NCBI GenBank assembly: GCA_041650915.1
Contig: JBAZKE010000001.1
Span: forward strand, 446,136 to 510,135
DNA: 64,000 nucleotides
Direction: 5' to 3'
DNA from: Patescibacteria group bacterium
Lineage (GTDB): Bacteria > Patescibacteriota > Patescibacteriia > UBA10025 > JAHIVO01
Made by a program: the position numbers and the translations under genes. Position 1 is the stretch's first letter; each line of letters starts with the position of its first letter. The notes below the pieces were generated by a model that did no database searches, was not told the DNA's origin, and saw only the letters and a program-made list of their open reading frames with translations. Below, piece after piece: positions 2,699 to 51,891 of the stretch.

Positions 2699-3283
2699 AT
2701 GAATGAATCCGGTGCCTGCCAGGGGAAGACGGATGAGGAGCTCGTCTCGCTGTCACTAGAAAATGCCGATTGGTACGGTTGTTTAATGCGGCGGTACGAA
2801 AGCAAGCTCGCGCGGTATATATACCGCATATCCAATGCCAGCGTCGAGGATATCCAAGATTTACTCCAGGAGGTTTTTCTTGCCGCGTACCGCAACCTCA
2901 ATGACTTTGACCAGACATTGAAGTTTTCGTCATGGATTTACCGCATCGCACACAACAAGGTCATCAGCCACTACCGCAAAACGGCTGCCCGTGCGGACGT
3001 TATCGACGGTGAGGAGGGGGAAAAATTGCTTGCGATGGTGAGCGATCAGGCTGACATCTTCGGTTCGGTGAACGACGTGATTACCGGAGAGGTTCTGGGC
3101 AAGCTGCTCAAGAAAATTGACGTGAAGTATAAGGAGGTGCTCGTACTGCGGTACCTTGAGCAGAAAGAATATGGAGAAATTTCCGATATTATAAAAAAGC
3201 CGGTCGGTACCGTCGCGACGCTCCTCAACAGGGCAAAAAAGCGCATGAGAGCGCTCATTGACGAGGAGGGAATAAAACTATGA
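2699..3283 (+). CDS. RNA polymerase sigma-70 family ECF sigma factor
   Basis: Region 2 (LLQEVFLAAYRNLNDFD...FSSWIYRIAHNKVISHYRK) and region 4 HTH (EISDIIKKPVGTVATLLNRAKKRMRA). Confidence 0.75.
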   Translation: MNESGACQGKTDEELVSLSLENADWYGCLMRRYESKLARYIYRISNASVEDIQDLLQEVFLAAYRNLNDFDQTLKFSSWIYRIAHNKVISHYRKTAARADVIDGEEGEKLLAMVSDQADIFGSVNDVITGEVLGKLLKKIDVKYKEVLVLRYLEQKEYGEISDIIKKPVGTVATLLNRAKKRMRALIDEEGIKL

Positions 3284-4059
3284 ATACCATTACCAATAAG
3301 ATACTGGATACAATCAAGGAAAAGCGGATAACGCCGAAACCGCGGTGGCAGTTCCTGCTGAAGCAGGGGCTGGTAGTTGCTGTTACTGTACTCTCGGCGA
3401 TTATCGGAAGCCTCTCATTCAGCGTCATGCTCTTCCGGCTCGTCAACAACGATTGGGATGTCGTTCGGTTTCTCGATAGGTCGCCGGTTCAGTACGCGTT
3501 TAGTACGCTGCCGTACGTCTGGATCATACTGCTCATTCTCTTCATCGGACTCGCGTACTACAACGCACGGCATGCCCGCGGTGCATACCGGCACCAGGCG
3601 TACTGGTTTATCGCCGGAAGCGTGCTCGTGAGCGTCGTATTCGGGAGTGTATTTTACGCATTCGGTGTGGCCCCGCGAATCCATACGTTCGCAGAGGGGG
3701 TGCCGGTATTCCGCGATTTTATCCAGGATCGGGACCGGTTGTGGCTCAAAGCTGATACCGGCTTGCTTGCCGGGGAAATCACCGAACTCTTCGGGGGCGA
3801 TGAACTGTTTGAGCTTGTCGACTTTAATGGCGCTTACTGGATTGTCATTCCGTCCGATAATTACGTACCGCCACCCGCGTTTTTTAAGATCGAGGAGGGC
3901 GTGCAGGTGCGGATGGTCGGAGAACAGCTCGATGCCAATCAGTTTGAAGCTGAGCTTGTCATGCCGTACCATATCGGCCCCGGCGTTATGAAGGGGAAGA
4001 TTAACGGATTCGCTCCGCCCTCAGGCGGTGGGCAGCACCGGCAATGGTTCAATGAGTAG
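3280..4059 (+). CDS. membrane protein co-transcribed with the ECF sigma factor (putative anti-sigma or partner)
   Basis: ATGA overlap with the sigma factor gene. It has 3-4 TM helices and no family motif. The anti-sigma role is inferred from position only. Confidence 0.4.
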   Translation: MNTITNKILDTIKEKRITPKPRWQFLLKQGLVVAVTVLSAIIGSLSFSVMLFRLVNNDWDVVRFLDRSPVQYAFSTLPYVWIILLILFIGLAYYNARHARGAYRHQAYWFIAGSVLVSVVFGSVFYAFGVAPRIHTFAEGVPVFRDFIQDRDRLWLKADTGLLAGEITELFGGDELFELVDFNGAYWIVIPSDNYVPPPAFFKIEEGVQVRMVGEQLDANQFEAELVMPYHIGPGVMKGKINGFAPPSGGGQHRQWFNE

Positions 4060-43335: not shown

Positions 43336-45054
43336 ATGAAAACATTTCGGCTTTTTTCCATAGCATTCTTGTTTGTTGCCGGAACGGTTGTATTGGGATT
43401 TGACGCGCAAGCCCAAGAATTGATTGATGACTTCCATTCCCTGATTGCTATCTCTCATGATGGTACTGTAACCGTTACCGAAACAATTACGTATGATTTC
43501 GGGCCATTTGAACGCCATGGCATCTATCGGACAATACCGTACAGTTACAATCGCGATGGTACAAAGTATAAGATATCAGTAGGTATCCTCGGTGTGAGTG
43601 ACGAGACCGGAACGGCAATTCCGTATACGGTTGAGCGTTCATTCGGCGCAGTGAACCTTAAAATCGGAGATCCGGACAAGCTAATCACCGGGCAGCATAC
43701 GTACGCTATTACCTATACGCTCGAACGCGTGATTAATTTTTTTGAAGATTACGACGAACTGTATTTGAATATCACCGGGAACGGCTGGGAAGTACCGATG
43801 AATGCTGTGAGTGCCGCCGTAGAGGTGCCAGGCGTCTCTGCACAGAACCTTCAGTATACCTGTTTTACCGGCGCATTGGGATTGCAGCAACAATACTGTA
43901 CGATGACTGCTGCTGACGGAAGCGTTAGATTCGACGTAGACGGCAGCCTGAGTGCGTATGAAGGGCTCACCGCAGTAGTCGGTTTTCCAAAAGGCGTTGT
44001 GGCGGAACCGACTGCTGACGAGTTGATAAAGCGGTTTATCCAGGACAATTGGCCGTTTGTTTTGCCGCTCCTCCTTATCGGTGTTCTCGTCTCGCTGTGG
44101 TATACGCGCGGCAGGGATCCGCATGTGGCGAGCACGATTGTTCCCCAGTACGAATCGCCTGAAGGCATTCCTGCCGGAGAACTCGGAACGGTAGTTGATG
44201 AGAAGGTTGATATGCACGACGTATCCGCATCGATCATCCAGTTGGCCGTGAAGGGTTACATCAAGCTTAAGGAAATCAGCAAGGATGAAAAGGCGCGCAA
44301 GCCGGATGATTATGAAATCATCAAGCTCAAGGAGCCCGATGCCGTGCTCAAGGAATATGAGAAAATAATTCTCGATGGAATTTTCAAGTCCGGCGAGACG
44401 AGTAAAAAGATTTCCAAGCTTAAAAACAAATTTTACGTTGAGCTTCCGAAAATTAAAAAAGCAATGTATAAACTTGTCGTTGCGGATGGCTTTTTCCCGA
44501 CTGCCCCCGATAGGGTCAGGACGTGCTATGCTGTCATTTCGATATTCATTTTGCCGCTTGCGTTCGTCATTATGGCTGCGTTTCAAAACATTCTCGCCGG
44601 AATCAGTACGGGCATCGTCGGCATCGTGGCGATTATTCTTTCACAGGCAATGCCGAGGAAGACCATCCGTGGGGCGGAAATTCATAAGCAGATACTCGGA
44701 TTCAAGTGGTTTTTGTCGGTTACCGAAACTGAACGCCTCAAGTTCCACAATGCCCCCGAAAAATCACCGAAGCAATTCGAAGAGCTTTTACCGTACGCTA
44801 TGGTACTCGGCGTGGAAGACGAATGGGCAAAACAGTTCGCCGGCATGTATCTCACTCCGCCGGAGTGGTATGAGGGTCACCACGCGGGTGCGTTTGGCGC
44901 CGCCTACCTTGCCTCATCGCTGCACTCACTGTCAACGAGCACGAACTCTGCCATGGGGAGCAGGCCGTCGAGCGCCGGTTCTGGCAGGTCTGGCTTTTCA
45001 GGAGGTGGCTTTTCAGGAGGTGGCTTTGGCGGTGGCGGGGGAGGCAGTTGGTAG
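43336..45054 (+). CDS. DUF2207-like membrane protein with a Gly-rich C-terminal tail
   Basis: Signal peptide, an extracellular domain, TM segments, and the tail SGRSGFSGGGFSGGGFGGGGGGSW. A short tandem nucleotide repeat underlies the tail. Confidence 0.55.
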   Translation: MKTFRLFSIAFLFVAGTVVLGFDAQAQELIDDFHSLIAISHDGTVTVTETITYDFGPFERHGIYRTIPYSYNRDGTKYKISVGILGVSDETGTAIPYTVERSFGAVNLKIGDPDKLITGQHTYAITYTLERVINFFEDYDELYLNITGNGWEVPMNAVSAAVEVPGVSAQNLQYTCFTGALGLQQQYCTMTAADGSVRFDVDGSLSAYEGLTAVVGFPKGVVAEPTADELIKRFIQDNWPFVLPLLLIGVLVSLWYTRGRDPHVASTIVPQYESPEGIPAGELGTVVDEKVDMHDVSASIIQLAVKGYIKLKEISKDEKARKPDDYEIIKLKEPDAVLKEYEKIILDGIFKSGETSKKISKLKNKFYVELPKIKKAMYKLVVADGFFPTAPDRVRTCYAVISIFILPLAFVIMAAFQNILAGISTGIVGIVAIILSQAMPRKTIRGAEIHKQILGFKWFLSVTETERLKFHNAPEKSPKQFEELLPYAMVLGVEDEWAKQFAGMYLTPPEWYEGHHAGAFGAAYLASSLHSLSTSTNSAMGSRPSSAGSGRSGFSGGGFSGGGFGGGGGGSW

Positions 45055-46387: not shown

Positions 46388-46558
46388 ATGTTTCCGACAA
46401 AAATCACGAGAAAGCTTTTCCAGACCGGGAAGTACAGTTACGTAATTACGCTTCCGAAAGATTTAATCCGCCATCTTGGATGGCAACGCGGTGATACGGT
46501 TGAGGTTGATTTTGACAGGTCAAAAAGCCGTATGATCATCAAGAAGTTTAAATTTTAG
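46388..46558 (+). CDS. AbrB/MazE/SpoVT-type swapped-hairpin DNA-binding protein (56 aa)
   Basis: MFPTKITRKLFQTGKYSYVITLPKDLIRHLGWQRGDTVEVDFD matches the SpoVT/AbrB domain pattern. It ends 3 nt before rlmH. No toxin partner is present. Confidence 0.5.
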   Translation: MFPTKITRKLFQTGKYSYVITLPKDLIRHLGWQRGDTVEVDFDRSKSRMIIKKFKF

Positions 46559-46561
46559 CTT

Positions 46562-47029
46562 ATGCGCATCAGCATCATTGCTGTCGGCGCGATCAAGGAA
46601 GCGTATTGGACTGATGCGATTGGGGAATACTTGAAGCGCCTCAAGCCGTTCGCACGGGTTGATATTAGGGAAGTTAGCGCAGCGCATTTCCGATCAAAAC
46701 GCGAGGGAAAAAATGCGCTAATGCAGGAAAGTGAAAGGCTGCTCAGTGTTGTTCCGAAGCAGTGTTTTGGCATTGCGCTCGATCTGCATGGCAAACGCTA
46801 CGATTCAGAGGAATTTGCGCGGGAATTGCAAGCTTGGACGTCAGCAGGGCAGCACTTGGCGTTTTTTATCGGAGGACCACTCGGTCTAAGCGGGGAGGTG
46901 CAAAAAAGAGCGCACGCGAAGCTTTCACTGTCCTCACTAACTTTTACCCACCAAATGGCCCGCGTGATTTTGCTCGAGCAGATTTACAGGGCTATCACTA
47001 TTCAAAAAGGGAAAACGTACCACTATTGA
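46562..47029 (+). CDS. rlmH: 23S rRNA (pseudouridine1915-N3)-methyltransferase RlmH
   Basis: SPOUT fold. MRISIIAVGAIKEAYWTDAIGEYLKRL, FFIGGPLGLS and the C-terminal region ARVILLEQIYRA. Confidence 0.8.
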   Translation: MRISIIAVGAIKEAYWTDAIGEYLKRLKPFARVDIREVSAAHFRSKREGKNALMQESERLLSVVPKQCFGIALDLHGKRYDSEEFARELQAWTSAGQHLAFFIGGPLGLSGEVQKRAHAKLSLSSLTFTHQMARVILLEQIYRAITIQKGKTYHY

Positions 47030-47163: not shown

Positions 47164-47844
47164 CTAGGAAGTTGGTACGTTTTCGCTATTACAGTATTCT
47201 AGTGCCCAGCCAGGCAGCGGATCATTGCGCCTGTTTGTTGCAATAAAAGAATTATCAGCCGGATCGATCACCACTTCATTTACGAATTTACCTGCCTCGA
47301 AAAACTTAAATTTTTTTGTCATTGTGCCTTCGGCAGGTCCATTAGGGTCTTCGCCCTGTTTGGTAATTGTGTTGAGCTCAATTTCAACCTGGCGATCATT
47401 GCTGAGTTCCTCTCGCTGGTACGTGGTGGTTTCCCATTCCCGGCCTCTGCCCGGACCCGCGTTTAAACTGCCAGTGGCGATTGTTAAACCGCCCTCATAC
47501 TTGTAGGTTATCTTCGTATCACTTTCTTTTCCTGGCATCGGTTTTTGTGTTCGAACTTCAGCCAGCCTGTCTTGCCCGTCATAGACCGCAGTCCGCTGCC
47601 AGTCGCTTCCTTCGCTTGCTTCGCGCCGGTAAGTTTCCTTGCCCGCTGCGTCTTTAATCACATGCCGGTAAACGCCGTCTGCAGGCGCCTCCGGCACTTT
47701 GTTTTGTTCAAACTCAGGCGGGTCAAATTCAACCGAACCGCCTTTCGGTGCTTCAGGCGGATTCATCAGCTCAAATGCTGTTTCAGGCTCGCTGGATGCG
47801 GTCCAATCTGCGTTCTCTTTTACTTCGTCGCCTTGTTCATTCAT
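47164..47844 (-). CDS. hypothetical protein (226 aa, acidic N-terminus, no signal peptide)
   Basis: Complete ORF with good coding periodicity. No recognisable family. Its promoter region faces the tandem repeats. Confidence 0.45.
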   Translation of the reverse strand: MNEQGDEVKENADWTASSEPETAFELMNPPEAPKGGSVEFDPPEFEQNKVPEAPADGVYRHVIKDAAGKETYRREASEGSDWQRTAVYDGQDRLAEVRTQKPMPGKESDTKITYKYEGGLTIATGSLNAGPGRGREWETTTYQREELSNDRQVEIELNTITKQGEDPNGPAEGTMTKKFKFFEAGKFVNEVVIDPADNSFIATNRRNDPLPGWALEYCNSENVPTS

Positions 47845-47922
47845 ATTTTTTTCTTTAATAAATAATTTTTACATTATTAGTTAAAAGTACTCCCAATTTC
47901 ATTGATTTGTCAATAAAAAACT

Positions 47923-48030
47923 GGGGCGAAACTTCAAGAAGACTTGGGGCCCCTTCCCTGAAACAAGTGCACGGCCGGGGCGAAACTTCAAGAAGACTTG
48001 GGGCCCCTTCCCTGAAACAAGTGCACGGCC
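47923..48030. repeat. two perfect 54-bp tandem direct repeats (47923..47976 and 47977..48030), followed by a related degenerate unit to about 48105
   Basis: The unit is GGGGCGAAACTTCAAGAAGACTTGGGGCCCCTTCCCTGAAACAAGTGCACGGCC. The third unit ends in a perfect hairpin, CGAAAGTGCAA-CAGAG-TTGCACTTTCG (48079..48105). Confidence 0.85.
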
Positions 48031-48132
48031 GGGGCGAAAGTGCAACAGAGTTGACGGGTCCCTCGCCAGGTCTCGGGACGAAAGTGCAACAGAGTTGCAC
48101 TTTCGGTTATTATTCGGTATACTGAATATCGT

Positions 48133-48387
48133 ATGTATGTGGATAAAGTACAGGAGACAGTACGCGTTTTTGCGGACTTTTCAGGCACTCAGGTCAGGCC
48201 AGTGGCGTTTATTCGCTCCACAGGCCGGCGTTATGATATCAAGCGCGTTAATCTGGTGTACCAAAAAAGGGTGGGAGATAGGTACCACTGGTGTTTTGCG
48301 TGTTCGGACGAGGCAAATACGTATGTTTTGTTTTACGATCCGGAAAATTTGCAATGGACCTTGCGCGAGGTTCAAATGGAGGGTTGA
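48133..48387 (+). CDS. hypothetical 84-aa protein whose stop directly abuts the start of the Y-family polymerase gene
   Basis: Its TGA stop is immediately followed by the polymerase ATG. It contains HWCFAC. No family recognised. Confidence 0.5.
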   Translation: MYVDKVQETVRVFADFSGTQVRPVAFIRSTGRRYDIKRVNLVYQKRVGDRYHWCFACSDEANTYVLFYDPENLQWTLREVQMEG

Positions 48388-49680
48388 ATGAGCAGTGAGT
48401 TTTGGGAGTTGGGTAGCGATAACCGGGAAAGTATGCAAAGGGTAATGCTTCATTTTGACATGAATTCGTACTTCGCGTCCGTTGAACAACAGGCGAATCC
48501 GTTTTTGCGAGGAAAGCCGGTTGGCGTATGTTCCACGATGTCCCGCAGAGGATGCATTATTGCCTCGTCAAGAGAGGCAAAAGCGTTTGGCATTAAGACC
48601 GGCTGCCGGGTAAATGAAGCGCTGGAACTGTATCCACAAGTGAACCTCGTGGAAGTTGACCCGCCGAAGTACCGTTCAACCACCAAGCGCATTTTTTCCA
48701 TTTGTGCTGATTATACCGAGGATATTGAGGCGTATTCAATTGACGAGGCGTTCTTGGATTTGACTGGCTCTGTTGAGTCGTTTGATAGAGCTCTCGGGAT
48801 CGCGAAGACAATCCAGCGGCGCATCCGGGACGAGGTTGGGGAGTGGCTCACGTGTTCCATGGGCATTACGTGGACGCGCTGGCTTGCGAAATTCGCGAGC
48901 GATACCGCACCGAAAGGCGGGATCGTCGTTTTAACGAGAGAGAGCCTTTTCCAGTATTTGCAGGGCCGTGATTTGCAGGATGCGTGGGGAATCGCGGACG
49001 CGATGGAGGCGAGGCTCAATATACTCGGCATCCGTACGCTCGACCAGCTTGCCGTTTATCCGGTGCAAAATTTAATGTCTGTAATGGGTAAGGCGGGTTA
49101 CTATCTGTGGGCAAACGTCAACGGCATTGAACTCGGCGGCTTGGAGGTGAAGCGTCCGCCAAAGACCATCGGCCACAGCCACGTACTCAAGAAGCGCGAT
49201 TTGGACCGCACGTTTCACATGGCAGTGCTCATGCGCCTCGCTGAGCGGACCGGCAGGCGATTGCGCGGGCATGGGTATGAGGCGCACGGGTTCTACTACT
49301 ACGTGCAGTTTGATGAGCGGCCGAGCTGCGGCGGCAGCCGGCGCGTGCATCATCCGATCGTGACGACAAACCAGATTTTCAGGCTCGTATGGAAAGAGAT
49401 CGCTCCGGTGGTTGCAAAGGACAAGCCGGGCATGTTTGCGCTCGGGCTTTTCGGCTTGCAGCCGCGCGCCGACCAGCTCTCCCTGTTTCGGCACGAACGG
49501 CTTTCCCCCGAGCTGTCGAGAGCGATTGATGAGATCAATAGCCGTTACGGCGAGGAGACGATCGTGCAGGGGCCGCTTTTGAAGCTAGAAAAAATGCACG
49601 CCCCAGATCGGGTAGGATTCCGCAAGACCATGGAAGCTGAGTTCAGCGGAGCGGCCGAGCTGCAGTACGGGGGAGGGTAG
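48388..49680 (+). CDS. dinB: Y-family DNA polymerase (DinB/Pol IV-like)
   Basis: N-terminal HFDMNSYFASVEQQANPFLRGKPVGVC and SIDEAFLDLTG are catalytic motifs of the UmuC/DinB family. Confidence 0.8.
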   Translation: MSSEFWELGSDNRESMQRVMLHFDMNSYFASVEQQANPFLRGKPVGVCSTMSRRGCIIASSREAKAFGIKTGCRVNEALELYPQVNLVEVDPPKYRSTTKRIFSICADYTEDIEAYSIDEAFLDLTGSVESFDRALGIAKTIQRRIRDEVGEWLTCSMGITWTRWLAKFASDTAPKGGIVVLTRESLFQYLQGRDLQDAWGIADAMEARLNILGIRTLDQLAVYPVQNLMSVMGKAGYYLWANVNGIELGGLEVKRPPKTIGHSHVLKKRDLDRTFHMAVLMRLAERTGRRLRGHGYEAHGFYYYVQFDERPSCGGSRRVHHPIVTTNQIFRLVWKEIAPVVAKDKPGMFALGLFGLQPRADQLSLFRHERLSPELSRAIDEINSRYGEETIVQGPLLKLEKMHAPDRVGFRKTMEAEFSGAAELQYGGG

Positions 49681-51199: not shown

Positions 51200-51850
51200 T
51201 TACAGTGGGTTGATTACCTCAGGCAATTCGTTGCGGTAGGAGTTGACGAGCGATGAAACCTCGTACATTTTCATCTGTTTTTCCGGGTACGGCTTGAGCG
51301 CCGAGAGCGCAGCTTCCGGTTCCGCAGACGAATCAATCCAAAGTTGCTCGTACCGGCGTTCGAGTATCGCCGGCATACGGTCGTGAAGTTGTGCGACCAG
51401 GCCGTTTGCTGGAACGGTTATTATGGAGAACGTAGGTATTGCAAGCCCGGCTGTCGTTAGGTACGTTTCCCAGATCCCAGCAAATGCGAATGGTTGTTCA
51501 TTTGAAAGTAAAATGCGGTGGGGGATTTTGGATCCTGTTTTTCTGTTCCACTCAAAAAAGCTGTCCGCAAGCACGAGGCAGCGCCAGCTTTTGACAGTAT
51601 TTCGAAAAGAAGGTTTTTCTCTTATTGTTTCTACGCGCGCATTGATAATGCCTTTTGGATTTTTTTTCATCCACTTCGGGATTAAGCCCCATTTTCCGGG
51701 TACGATGCTTTCCGGATCGGTATTCAAAATAACCGGGAGCTCTTGGGATGGGGCAGCGTTGAAGTGCCGCTTGATGGGCAGCTTGAATCGCGCTTGCCAG
51801 CGTTCTTCTACGATATCGTCTTTTGAGAAAAATGAGTATCGCCCGCACAT
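51200..51850 (-). CDS. SOS response-associated peptidase (SRAP/YedK family, abasic-site processing)
   Basis: Start placed at MCGRYS (invariant Cys2). Length is about 216 aa. The longer ORF would start with TTG 13 codons upstream. Confidence 0.8.
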   Translation of the reverse strand: MCGRYSFFSKDDIVEERWQARFKLPIKRHFNAAPSQELPVILNTDPESIVPGKWGLIPKWMKKNPKGIINARVETIREKPSFRNTVKSWRCLVLADSFFEWNRKTGSKIPHRILLSNEQPFAFAGIWETYLTTAGLAIPTFSIITVPANGLVAQLHDRMPAILERRYEQLWIDSSAEPEAALSALKPYPEKQMKMYEVSSLVNSYRNELPEVINPL

Positions 51851-51891
51851 GACTTCAGTATAGTAGATTCGTGTACGTTCGAAAAGCAAAT

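Follow-up and report, generated by a model that had tools for sequence, protein, structure and literature searches.

The 64-kb stretch of patescibacterial DNA analysed here (the window) carries two identical 54-bp tandem repeats and a strong hairpin immediately in front of a predicted translesion polymerase operon. What are these repeats, and do they take part in controlling the polymerase? On the plus strand, the operon begins with a gene for a conserved, functionally uncharacterised 84-aa all-beta protein (48133..48387), followed by a gene for a Y-family (DinB/Pol IV-like) DNA polymerase (48388..49680; IMS, 6.8e-43, IMS_C and NCBIfam DNA polymerase IV models) whose start overlaps the stop of the small ORF. 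A divergent 226-aa gene without any Pfam or NCBIfam match lies on the minus strand at 47164..47844; its orthologues were called in L002 and L006/L007, and an identical protein is encoded on Logan contig L162. A TTGACA at 47908..47913 on the minus strand is a candidate −35 hexamer of this gene, since TTTGTCAAT is kept at the same place in L002 and L006 and is followed there, on the minus strand, by a −10-like hexamer 17 nt downstream. The repeats thus occupy a divergent promoter region upstream of a small-ORF/polymerase operon, as the initial annotation had placed them. No transposase or RAYT gene was seen among the neighbours of the element. At some of the related loci, MITE-like palindromes lie between the small ORF and dinB.

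Tandem Repeats Finder reported a period of 54, 2.2 copies and 100% matches (score 234) at 47923-48039. Copy 1 (47923..47976) and copy 2 (47977..48030), both given on the plus strand, are identical and contiguous, the period being equal to the unit length. CRISPR arrays are similar in that they consist of direct repeats holding a small palindrome, but here the units abut without spacers, only 2.2 identical copies are present and no CRISPR family was found by Rfam, in agreement with the initial reading that this is not a CRISPR array. Both the palindrome GGGGCCCC and the mini-hairpin CAAG-AAGA-CTTG, which had been noted before, were found in each 54-mer. A third, related unit of 44 bp had also been recognized and lies at 48031..48074 (plus strand); the relationship rests on a 24-nt sequence, CGGGGCGAAAGTGCAACAGAGTTG, which recurs at 48030 and 48074 with 96% identity. 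None of these repeat and hairpin patterns occurred in dinucleotide shuffles of the window (expected 0.00).

The tandem copies could have been produced by the assembly, or the region could belong to a longer coding sequence. In run SRR8542065, Logan contig L162 breaks exactly 30 nt into unit 1 and Logan contig L001 breaks exactly 30 nt before copy 2 exits into unit 3. Such breaks are expected where a de Bruijn graph built with k=31 contains a loop, which shows that the tandem junction exists in the reads of an independent, read-derived assembly graph. The duplication is no assembly artefact, and at least two copies are present. No real coding sequence crosses the repeat region; the ORFs that do (81 aa on the minus strand and 72 aa on the plus strand) are derived from the repeats.

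Immediately downstream of the repeats we found what reads as an SOS promoter. Its operator had been overlooked in the initial annotation, as had the derivation of the units from a two-hairpin module that is conserved in Patescibacteria and described below. The predicted −35 hexamer TTGCAC (48095..48100, plus strand) stands 17 nt from the predicted −10 hexamer TATACT (48118..48123), and its position matches that of TTGACn in more than 120 related promoters. The spacer of this consensus-derived core promoter is filled by a direct repeat, TTCGG-N6-TTCGG (TTCGGTTATTATTCGG, 48102..48117), which therefore overlaps the promoter as a putative operator. The −10 hexamer ends 9 nt before the ATG at 48133 and no Shine-Dalgarno sequence precedes this ATG, suggesting that the mRNA is nearly leaderless. 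The operator is present in every orthologous locus, and ACTTTCGGTTnTTnTTCGGTATAnT stands unchanged in front of the small ORF of all orthologues, even where protein identity falls to 44%.

When metagenomes were scanned with TTGACNTTCGGNTTTTNTTCGG, at least 120 matches were obtained; among the matches listed, 100 distinct sites could be classified by their downstream gene. Thirty-five of these precede lexA-like genes and 14 the small ORF. The other 51 precede a variety of genes, among them recA-like, IMS/ImuB-like, NrdR, radical-SAM and DUF3276 genes (for example, recA-like at L138, IMS/ImuB-like with Pfam IMS at L149, DinB at L078 and NrdR at L070). The promoter with its TTCGG-N6-TTCGG repeat thus precedes lexA on at least 35 contigs from Patescibacteria metagenomes, and one ORF behind the motif was confirmed as Peptidase_S24 plus LexA_DNA_bind. 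In 108 promoters the motif is trailed by a −10 signal, TAnnnT. Because the same combination of promoter and repeat precedes lexA, recA, dinB/imuB and nrdR, TTCGG-N6-TTCGG is almost certainly a LexA operator, as far as comparison of sequences can tell. Many Patescibacteria promoters carry the motif as GTTCGG-N5-GTTCGG, which equals GTTC-N7-GTTC, and direct-repeat LexA boxes of the form GTTC-N7-GTTC are documented in Alphaproteobacteria (PMC8565304). In both systems, a pair of short direct repeats with a period of 11 bp overlaps the core promoters of SOS genes, and the motif of the window is likewise found before lexA, recA and translesion polymerases. They differ in the core, which is TTCGG rather than GTTC here, and in the lineage, and the putative operator of the window adjoins the repeat units instead of being part of them. 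Within the window, the only other exact match to TTCGG-N6-TTCGG lies inside a DUF2207 coding region (none was found, for instance, upstream of the SRAP gene), and the counts are at chance level. In four more distant relatives (L025, L026, L031 and L035), a second, partial copy of the −35/operator sequence lies approximately 56-68 bp upstream.

The hairpin next to this promoter, here called hairpin B, occupies 48079..48105 on the plus strand (CGAAAGTGCAAC-AGA-GTTGCACTTTCG). The initial annotation had correctly recognized it as a strong hairpin ending 28 nt before the ATG, with an 11-bp stem and a 5-nt loop; we found a perfect 12-bp stem with a 3-nt loop and six G-C pairs (−17.5 kcal/mol as RNA). 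Its 3′ arm contains the predicted −35 hexamer TTGCAC and the first 4 nt of the operator, which places the hairpin upstream of the predicted transcription start. With the downstream GTTATTATT it resembles a terminator, and a consensus terminator scan flagged 48079-48105 together with the T-rich tail GTTATTATTC. The tail directly behind the hairpin reads GGTTTTTATT in most orthologous loci and GGTTATTATT in the window.

Hairpin B is directly preceded by a second hairpin, hairpin A, which in its general form has a 5-bp G/C stem and a loop reading TCR...YTC. The promoter-proximal hairpin A lies at 48058..48079 on the plus strand (GTCCC, loop TCGCCAGGTCTC, GGGAC). Two further, mutually identical copies on the same strand, with GCCCC and GGGGC arms around a 23-nt loop, lie at 47949..47981 and 48003-48035. 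The repeat units can be read in terms of these hairpins. Copy 1 starts with the 3′ half of a hairpin A stem (GGGGC), continues with GAAACTTCAAG and the mini-hairpin CAAG-AAGA-CTTG, and closes with the 5′ half of another hairpin A and its loop; GAAACTTCAAG is probably a relic of the 5′ arm of hairpin B. The third unit reads GGGGCGAAAGTGCAAC-AGA-GTTG and then enters the proximal hairpin A, of which it holds the 5′ half and the loop. Its GGGGCGAAAGTGCAAC is the same 5′ arm as in the promoter-proximal hairpin, and its 19-nt arm is 84% complementary to 48087-48105. The window thus contains four copies of the upstream half of a two-hairpin module, two of them newly duplicated. The complete proximal module, comprising hairpin A, hairpin B and the operator, spans 48055..48117 (plus strand) and scored 73 bits (E about 1e-18) with the covariance model R1 described below.

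We compared about 150 related loci. RNAalifold, applied to an unfitted MAFFT alignment, predicted exactly the two hairpins, with compensatory changes in 8 of 16 base pairs. At 20 loci, 96.8% of the alignment cells were paired and 12 of the 16 pairs changed on both sides; there were 74 double-change cells, where shuffles gave 23.9±4.4 and slid controls 6-10. In hairpin B, the loop varied from about 3 to more than 20 nt and was often 9-23 nt long, which fits a folded strand and not a dimer site of fixed spacing.

Strong covariation in two helices, together with a terminator-like hairpin B and its U-run, would be expected of a transcribed structured RNA, be it a small RNA with its 3′ end at hairpin B or a leader or attenuator of the operon, made from a promoter upstream of the array. 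The fold z-scores of the region (−2.1 on the plus strand, −2.8 on the minus strand) and a mild plus-strand bias of the wobbles point in the same direction. Over the whole module we counted eight G.U versus three A.C wobbles, a weak preference for the plus strand. Hairpin B showed little of this asymmetry and hairpin A none (six U.G versus five C.A), and it is too weak to decide the strand of a putative RNA. Against such an RNA, no plus-strand promoter upstream of the array was found by a promoter scan and no promoter is conserved before hairpin A; at loci with a single unit, only ~17-20 nt separate the terminator of the previous gene from the module. Moreover, the element extends over the −35 of the predicted SOS promoter and lies ahead of its −10, and would thus be outside the operon mRNA. 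Rfam detected three tRNAs only in the whole window at gathering score, and nothing relevant in a permissive search (E≤10) of 47700-48300 and of ten module-bearing loci. We consider a transcribed structured RNA very unlikely. Of the functions proposed initially, a cis-acting leader or attenuator conflicts with a 3′ arm that holds the predicted −35 of a promoter conserved in more than 120 loci, and a small repeat-RNA gene finds no support in the missing upstream promoter, the Rfam result or the copy number, which ranges from 0 to 4 among orthologues. We also considered a type I hammerhead ribozyme (hairpin-GAAA-hairpin) and rejected it: the CUGANGA core is absent before hairpin A, where the sequence is TTGACGG, GACTTGG or TAAAAAG, depending on the unit, and Rfam reported no hammerhead.

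Where does the module occur? The covariance model R1 gave 20 strong matches (35-79 bits), all of them at SOS promoters of the small ORF or dinB, including two directly upstream of dinB without a small ORF. A 10-bp hairpin ending at TTCG was perfect in 14 of 37 small-ORF/dinB promoters and had 9 of 10 pairs in five more, whereas none of the 86 classified lexA and other SOS promoters had the module or scored 9 or better. In 925 kb scanned, 19 of 28 perfect instances lay within 130 nt upstream of an SOS box. The module keeps its position relative to the −35 across small-ORF proteins that are 44-80% identical. On the other hand, about half of the orthologous promoters lack it, so it is dispensable. 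In the initial annotation, a search for the unit elsewhere had been suggested in order to distinguish a REP- or MITE-like distribution from a unique element. Such a search of the window found the module at a single locus, and a 31-mer of the unit had no exact match in a metagenome contig collection. We conclude that, in the sequences searched, the module is restricted to small-ORF/dinB SOS promoters and is not a dispersed REP/MITE family.

This distribution bears on a neutral or selfish origin, according to which the units are functionless products of hairpin-driven mutation (quasi-palindrome template switching plus slippage) or copies of a small palindromic mobile repeat. Quasi-palindromes and tandem duplications are mutational hotspots through template switching and replication slippage. 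The locus resembles such hotspots in that the perfect 54-bp duplication is flanked by short direct repeats, GGGGCGAAA, and the arms of the palindromes change together, an effect that template switching can produce. Copy number differs between orthologues (0 to 4), and identity is confined to the newest copies, all older ones being degenerate. The MITE-like palindromes at the same loci, the similarity of the hairpin A loop of the 54-mer to the CCTGAATCAAGTTCAGG hairpin of such MITE-like inserts, and the low-frequency occurrence elsewhere of hairpins built in this way (5-bp G/C stem, loop TCR...YTC) would also agree with this origin. As in REP/BIME and MITE-like repeats, short intergenic palindromes with G/C stems vary in copy number between strains. 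Unlike those, however, the units are found at one kind of promoter, in a fixed register with the −35 and all in the same orientation. A neutral origin leaves unexplained why the position is fixed over such divergence and also at dinB promoters without the small ORF, and why the module is absent from the other SOS promoters of the set. The proximal module is kept across deep divergence only at translesion-polymerase promoters, for which mutation alone is insufficient. We therefore regard a purely neutral or selfish element as unlikely.

The units might instead be iterated protein-binding sites, each bound by LexA or another regulator, which would allow cooperative repression, looping or titration. 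This had been one of the suggestions of the initial annotation. GGRCGAAA is kept in all units, and both it and CAAG persist in distal units although nothing is there for them to pair with. In inverted orientation, the conserved GGRCGAAA-nnn-CAAG repeats the −35 plus TTTCG of the operator; every distal arm reads TTGnnnTTTCG when reverse-complemented. The spacings in the window (54, 54 and 44 bp) correspond to ~5.1, 5.1 and 4.2 helical turns, and the second, partial −35/operator copy in the four distant relatives could be taken as a further site. However, the spacing among loci is irregular (37 to 143 bp), the predicted LexA box lies outside the repeats and the units have only TTCG in common with the TTCGG half-site. 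Covarying stems with variable loops fit folding and not a sequence-specific dimer site, and pairing with the conserved TTTCG accounts for the conservation of the flanks. Units are also missing at lexA, recA and other SOS promoters and at half of the orthologous promoters. Taken together, what is left of the suggestion is weak, and iterated binding sites appear quite unlikely.

Since the −35 and part of the operator lie inside hairpin B, the module might also act as a structural switch at the level of DNA. A cruciform, or a single-stranded fold at damaged forks, would hide the −35 and one operator half-site and couple the promoter to supercoiling or single-stranded DNA. The perfect stems in 14 of 37 promoters and the lack of strand bias in the mismatches of hairpin A are consistent with this, and with a divergent upstream gene, as in the window, a role at the DNA level needs no incoming transcript. 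Yet the loops of hairpin B, often 9-23 nt long, disfavour cruciform extrusion, and the stems tolerate G.T wobbles and bulges. We consider such a switch extremely improbable. In another reading, hairpins A and B would form an undescribed, lineage-wide cis-element of Patescibacteria translesion-polymerase promoters that adds to LexA a further, independent level of control (such as a switch that forms structures in response to single-stranded DNA, supercoiling or read-through), with the arrays recording past −35 variants; this we judge distinctly improbable.

According to the best reading of the sequence, an SOS operon of a Kerfeldbacteria-like Patescibacteria genome is controlled from this region. 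We give about an even chance to the explanation that the operon is LexA-repressed, that hairpin B and the T-run of the operator form a terminator against read-through and that the extra units are relics of slippage. LexA bound to 48102-48117 would block RNA polymerase, and DNA damage would lead to self-cleavage of LexA and transcription of the genes for the 84-aa protein and the DinB-like polymerase. The module would most likely act as RNA of the plus strand, in which hairpin B followed by GGTTTTTATT or GGTTATTATT would be an intrinsic terminator. By stopping transcription that enters from upstream, this terminator would ensure that the mutagenic polymerase is made only once LexA is removed. 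Hairpin A would be an auxiliary or unassigned part.

Intrinsic terminators directly upstream of a promoter are similar in that a stable stem-loop and a T/U-run stand between an upstream unit and a tightly repressed promoter. The arrangement here is unlike them in several respects: the 3′ arm of the stem is the −35 of the next promoter, the U-run is formed by the operator spacer, another conserved hairpin stands in front and the 5′ half is tandemly multiplied, and in the window there is no co-directional upstream gene. Upstream genes (rplL, lexA or a DNA_alkylation gene) are co-directional in L027, L036, L038, L055, L155 and L014, often with a terminator of their own; in L027, L036 and L038, the module comes after the highly expressed gene rplL. 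These orientations were taken from called genes and sequence reading, as calling of raw ORFs was unreliable and had missed rplL.

Several observations speak against the terminator explanation. In the window and in L002 and L006 the upstream gene is divergent, and there is no obvious plus-strand transcription to terminate; at several other loci, the canonical terminator of the upstream gene precedes the module and would make hairpin B redundant. A terminator gives no role to hairpin A and does not explain the conservation of GGRCGAAA and CAAG in distal units. The plus-strand wobble bias is as limited as described above, half of the promoters manage without the module, and template-switch 'correction' can likewise make the arms of a palindrome covary in the absence of functional selection. 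Finally, no lexA gene was found within the 64-kb window by a regex screen for the S24 GDSM motif in ORFs of at least 70 aa.

The copies themselves record a history of duplication. Orthologous regions vary by whole units; they hold the upstream half of the module in 0 to 4 copies, which are degenerate. A repeat of high identity is present in the window only, among the orthologues compared. The identical 54-mers are the newest duplication; the initial annotation had taken their perfect identity to imply recent duplication or concerted maintenance, the first of which we support. Duplications recur independently in several lineages. The hairpin A copies are bordered by ~19-bp direct repeats, a pattern that target-site duplication by a mobile repeat and tandem duplication would both yield. 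Slippage or unequal exchange at the hairpins would have produced the units as tandem duplicates of hairpin A plus the 5′ arm of hairpin B, and the distal copies, which lack a 3′ partner, are probably relics. In five cases, a distal arm is the same as the present-day proximal arm of a different genome, with ~3 expected by chance according to our own estimate. Comparison of the arms is therefore only suggestive of tandem arrays being a 'fossil record' of past −35 variants.

To our knowledge, there is almost no experimental knowledge of gene regulation in Patescibacteria/CPR bacteria. The locus offers a cleanly defined predicted SOS promoter, with a −35, a direct-repeat operator in the spacer, a −10 and a nearly leaderless start, and with it a two-hairpin element that is conserved, covaries and, among the promoters compared, is confined to those of error-prone polymerases. 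An uncharacterised, putatively SOS-regulated 84-aa protein travels with dinB. The tandem copies illustrate how hairpin-rich promoters may expand by slippage, and they carry a warning for assemblies, as contigs break at them. If the module is an insulating terminator, these very small genomes would silence a mutagenic enzyme with operator bases that double as terminator bases; otherwise, the module would be a candidate for a new regulatory structure.

Upstream of the 84-aa small ORF and dinB, a single array was reported here by Tandem Repeats Finder (47923-48039; period 54, 2.2 copies, 100% matches, score 234). A repeat search returned two identical 54-nt copies (47923-47976 and 47977-48030), a 24-nt block, CGGGGCGAAAGTGCAACAGAGTTG, at 48030 that recurs at 48074 with 96% identity, and a perfect inverted repeat with arms at 48079-48090 and 48094-48105. 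The 31-mer core and the 27-nt palindrome were never regenerated in shuffled versions of the window. These results bear out the repeats and hairpin described in the initial annotation. Its exclusion of CRISPR also holds, the array lacking a defining feature of CRISPR that was tested; the same outcome was obtained for REP/BIME/MITE elements, riboswitches or leaders, and hammerheads, and no Rfam family matched.

The annotation had named two possible flaws, an assembly artefact and a longer coding sequence. In an independent assembly of run SRR8542065, two contigs break at the array: L162 ends exactly 30 nt into unit 1, and L001 begins exactly 30 nt before the base where copy 2 exits into unit 3. 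This is the behaviour of a k=31 de Bruijn graph at a tandem loop, so the duplication junction is present in the reads and, at that level, the tandem copies are not artefactual; read support reaches the junction, and 2.2 copies is the count in the assembled sequence. ORFs crossing the region derive from the repeats and orthologous regions differ by whole units, which places it outside any real coding sequence. Related loci belong to MAGs of Candidatus Kerfeldbacteria and of other Patescibacteria; each orthologue carries 0 to 4 units, every one degenerate, and the high-identity pair occurs only in this window among the loci compared. We conclude that the 54-bp pair is a recent duplication inside an old, degenerate array and, as repeats, nothing special.

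The sequence ACTTTCGGTTnTTnTTCGGTATAnT lies just 5' of the small ORF in every orthologous locus, even at 44-57% protein identity. In the window we infer a -35 (TTGCAC, 48095-48100) and a -10 (TATACT, 48118-48123), the 17-nt spacer being filled by the direct repeat TTCGGTTATTATTCGG (48102-48117). The ATG at 48133 follows 9 nt after the -10 without a Shine-Dalgarno sequence, unlike the next gene of the operon, which has GGAGGG. A metagenome scan with TTGACNTTCGGNTTTTNTTCGG gave at least 120 matches. Among the matches listed, 100 distinct sites were classifiable: lexA-like genes lay downstream of 35, the small ORF of 14 and other genes of 51, including recA-like, DinB, ImuB-like (Pfam IMS), NrdR, a radical-SAM repair-type protein and DUF3276. 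One ORF behind the motif was confirmed as Peptidase_S24 plus LexA_DNA_bind, and, across 108 distinct promoters among the matches listed, a -10 of the form TAnnnT comes after the motif. LexA operators are typically recognised by just such a motif, one common to the promoter of lexA itself and to classical SOS genes. Many of these promoters read GTTCGG-N5-GTTCGG and thus have the GTTC-N7-GTTC form. This direct-repeat form is known from Alphaproteobacteria (PMC8565304). On these grounds we take 48102-48117 as a LexA box, to which LexA would bind, and the small-ORF/dinB operon as an SOS operon; judged by its sequence, the stretch would work like a direct-repeat LexA box, has the defining features that were tested and probably is one.

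Genes behind the putative LexA box in related loci (L042-L161) would outline a Patescibacteria SOS regulon of lexA, recA, dinB, imuB-like, nrdR, the radical-SAM repair-type protein (LLRVLMTNACS...), DUF3276, a small membrane protein (LQLTLAI.PAI...), DNA methyltransferases and LAGLIDADG-type endonucleases. Among the matches listed, 32 of 108 distinct SOS promoters of these loci have a DnaA-box-like TTATCCACA, on either strand, in the 40 nt before the -35, especially at lexA; the window's own promoter has none. The box hints at input from DnaA, or at an upstream element common to these promoters. The SOS promoter lies 473 nt upstream of the small ORF in L013 and L021 and 489 nt upstream in L024, separated from it by an inserted segment. 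In L013 the segment bears a 101-aa gene on the opposite strand, so that control of the small ORF by the operator may be lost. Tandem duplication of another kind is seen at L025, L026, L031 and L035, where an incomplete second copy of the -35 and operator, TTGACTTCGGTTTTTCTTCC, lies ~55-70 nt 5' of the functional promoter and has a G/C hairpin after it. Palindromic MITE-like inserts such as TTGTCATTCCGG...CCGGAATC...CTGAATCAAGTTCAGGATGACAA and GTCATTGCGAG...CTCGCAATGAC separate the small ORF from dinB elsewhere (L002:3255-3342, L003:3255-3527, L014:3255-3554, L011:3255-3413), and one sits between SOS promoter and small ORF (L012:2880-3000). The window has no insert between these genes because they overlap.

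The small ORF (48133-48387) has 26 homologues with 64-100% identity, and no Pfam domain was found in it; its stop is overlapped by the start of the Y-family polymerase (48388-49680; IMS 6.8e-43). A 226-aa gene without family assignment lies upstream of the array on the opposite strand. At 1.5 kb beyond dinB is an SRAP gene (SOS-response-associated peptidase, YedK-like; 51200-51889, minus strand), a neighbour of dinB in several relatives too; a search of the window showed no TTCGG-N6-TTCGG box in its vicinity. A 56-aa MazE/AbrB-type gene (SpoVT-AbrB fold; 46388-46558, plus strand) directly precedes rlmH, a SPOUT methyltransferase gene (46562-47029, plus strand); L002, L003, L006 and L014 keep the two genes in synteny, and L011 has the MazE-type gene alone. 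Further away, the glycine-rich C-terminus SGFSGGGFSGGGFGGG of a DUF2207 membrane protein contains a 15-bp tandem repeat of 2.5 perfect copies (TGGCTTTTCAGGAGG; 44991-45027). A 194-aa ORF resembles an ECF-type sigma factor, and the 259-aa membrane protein after it may be an anti-sigma factor (2699-4059, plus strand).

Reading the upstream regions of ~35 distinct orthologues, we found a recurring module fused to the promoter, although about half lack it. Hairpin A, with the stem G(C/T)CC(C/T) ... (G/A)GG(G/A)C and a loop starting TC(R) and ending (Y)TC, is directly followed by hairpin B, whose 5' arm is CGAAA-nnn-CAAG and whose 3' arm, CTTG-nnn-TTTCG, comprises the -35 hexamer and the first operator bases. 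RNAalifold, given a plain MAFFT alignment of ten modules, predicted exactly these two helices, with compensatory changes in 8 of 16 pairs. R1, a covariance model of the promoter-proximal module (hairpin A, hairpin B and operator) built from that alignment, found 20 strong matches (35-79 bits) in ~925 kb, and every one belongs to an SOS promoter of the small ORF or of dinB. Two AT-rich lineages have no small ORF there, and their module directly precedes dinB. In the 20-sequence alignment, which unlike the ten-module one is model-fitted, 96.8% of cells were paired, 12 of 16 pairs changed on both sides, and double-change cells numbered 74, compared with 23.9±4.4 in shuffles and 6-10 with slid partners.

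The array can be read in these terms. A truncated leading unit (from 47923) is followed by hairpin A copy 1 (47949-47981) and GAAACTTCAAG-AAGA-CTTG, the identical copy 2 (48003-48035) and GAAAGTGCAAC-AGA-GTTG, the proximal hairpin A (48058-48079) and hairpin B (48079-48105). The 54-bp unit is thus hairpin A plus the 5' half of hairpin B, in a shifted frame. In our view the distal units arose by slippage or unequal exchange and survive as relics. Reverse-complemented, each of their arms reads TTGnnnTTTCG, and five equal the present proximal arm of another genome (~3 such matches expected by chance), a hint that distal units may preserve earlier -35 states. Iterated regulator sites would fit the 54/54/44-bp spacing and the GGRCGAAA kept in partner-less units, but spacing is irregular among loci, the units match the operator half-site poorly and the structure covaries; we consider them distinctly unlikely. 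The hairpin B loop, which varies from about 3 to >20 nt, likewise favours a folded strand over a fixed-spacing protein site.

The unit is not dispersed in the REP- or MITE-like manner that the annotation had raised, occupying one locus in the 64-kb window. The 925 kb contained 28 perfect instances of 'hairpin A + GAAA'; an SOS box followed within 130 nt for 19 of them, and the others look like chance. At ~100 other metagenome SOS promoters a unit-like motif occurred once, as a chance match in coding sequence. Of 37 small-ORF/dinB promoters, 14 have a perfect 10-bp hairpin ending at TTCG and five more have one scoring 9/10; the score never reached 9/10 at 86 lexA and other SOS promoters, and shuffled controls scored 9 in 7 of 115 and 10 in none. 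Neutral or selfish hairpin repeats would explain the copy-number flux and the MITE-like palindromes nearby, but not the fixed register with the -35 or the restriction to translesion-polymerase promoters across deep divergence, and this explanation is unlikely. A looser two-hairpin arrangement was seen at DUF3276 (PUR-alpha-like) SOS promoters (L089:12490-12585; L103:1697-1790, minus strand; L127:3140-3228): a GATCC...GGATC hairpin, whose loop is TTCGA...CTCA, and after it a G/C hairpin abutting the -35, scored 26-32 bits by R1.

The 3' arm of the final hairpin is the -35, so the hairpin cannot act as a leader or attenuator in the operon mRNA, provided that the conserved promoter is the one used. 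The annotation's interpretation was partly supported; its leader or attenuator option is lost if that promoter holds. An independent small RNA or leader has little probability, and a DNA cruciform or single-stranded-DNA switch hardly any. Hairpin B and the operator T-run (GGTTTTTATT in most loci, GGTTATTATT in the window; hairpin fold -17.5 kcal/mol) have the form of an intrinsic terminator. As the best reading, we infer that they would block transcription arriving from upstream, and that the mutagenic polymerase would then hinge solely on LexA removal. In favour, wobble pairs lean to the plus strand (8 G.U versus 3 A.C), rplL or lexA precedes the module in several lineages, and it is missing from the lexA and recA promoters, at which leaky transcription does no harm. 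Against it, the upstream gene is divergent in the window, several loci already have a terminator 5' of the module, half of the orthologues do without the module, and hairpin A shows no strand bias and gets no role.

What the repeats mark is a conserved element of two covarying hairpins, joined to an SOS promoter that serves an operon for an error-prone polymerase, in a phylum that is almost unstudied.
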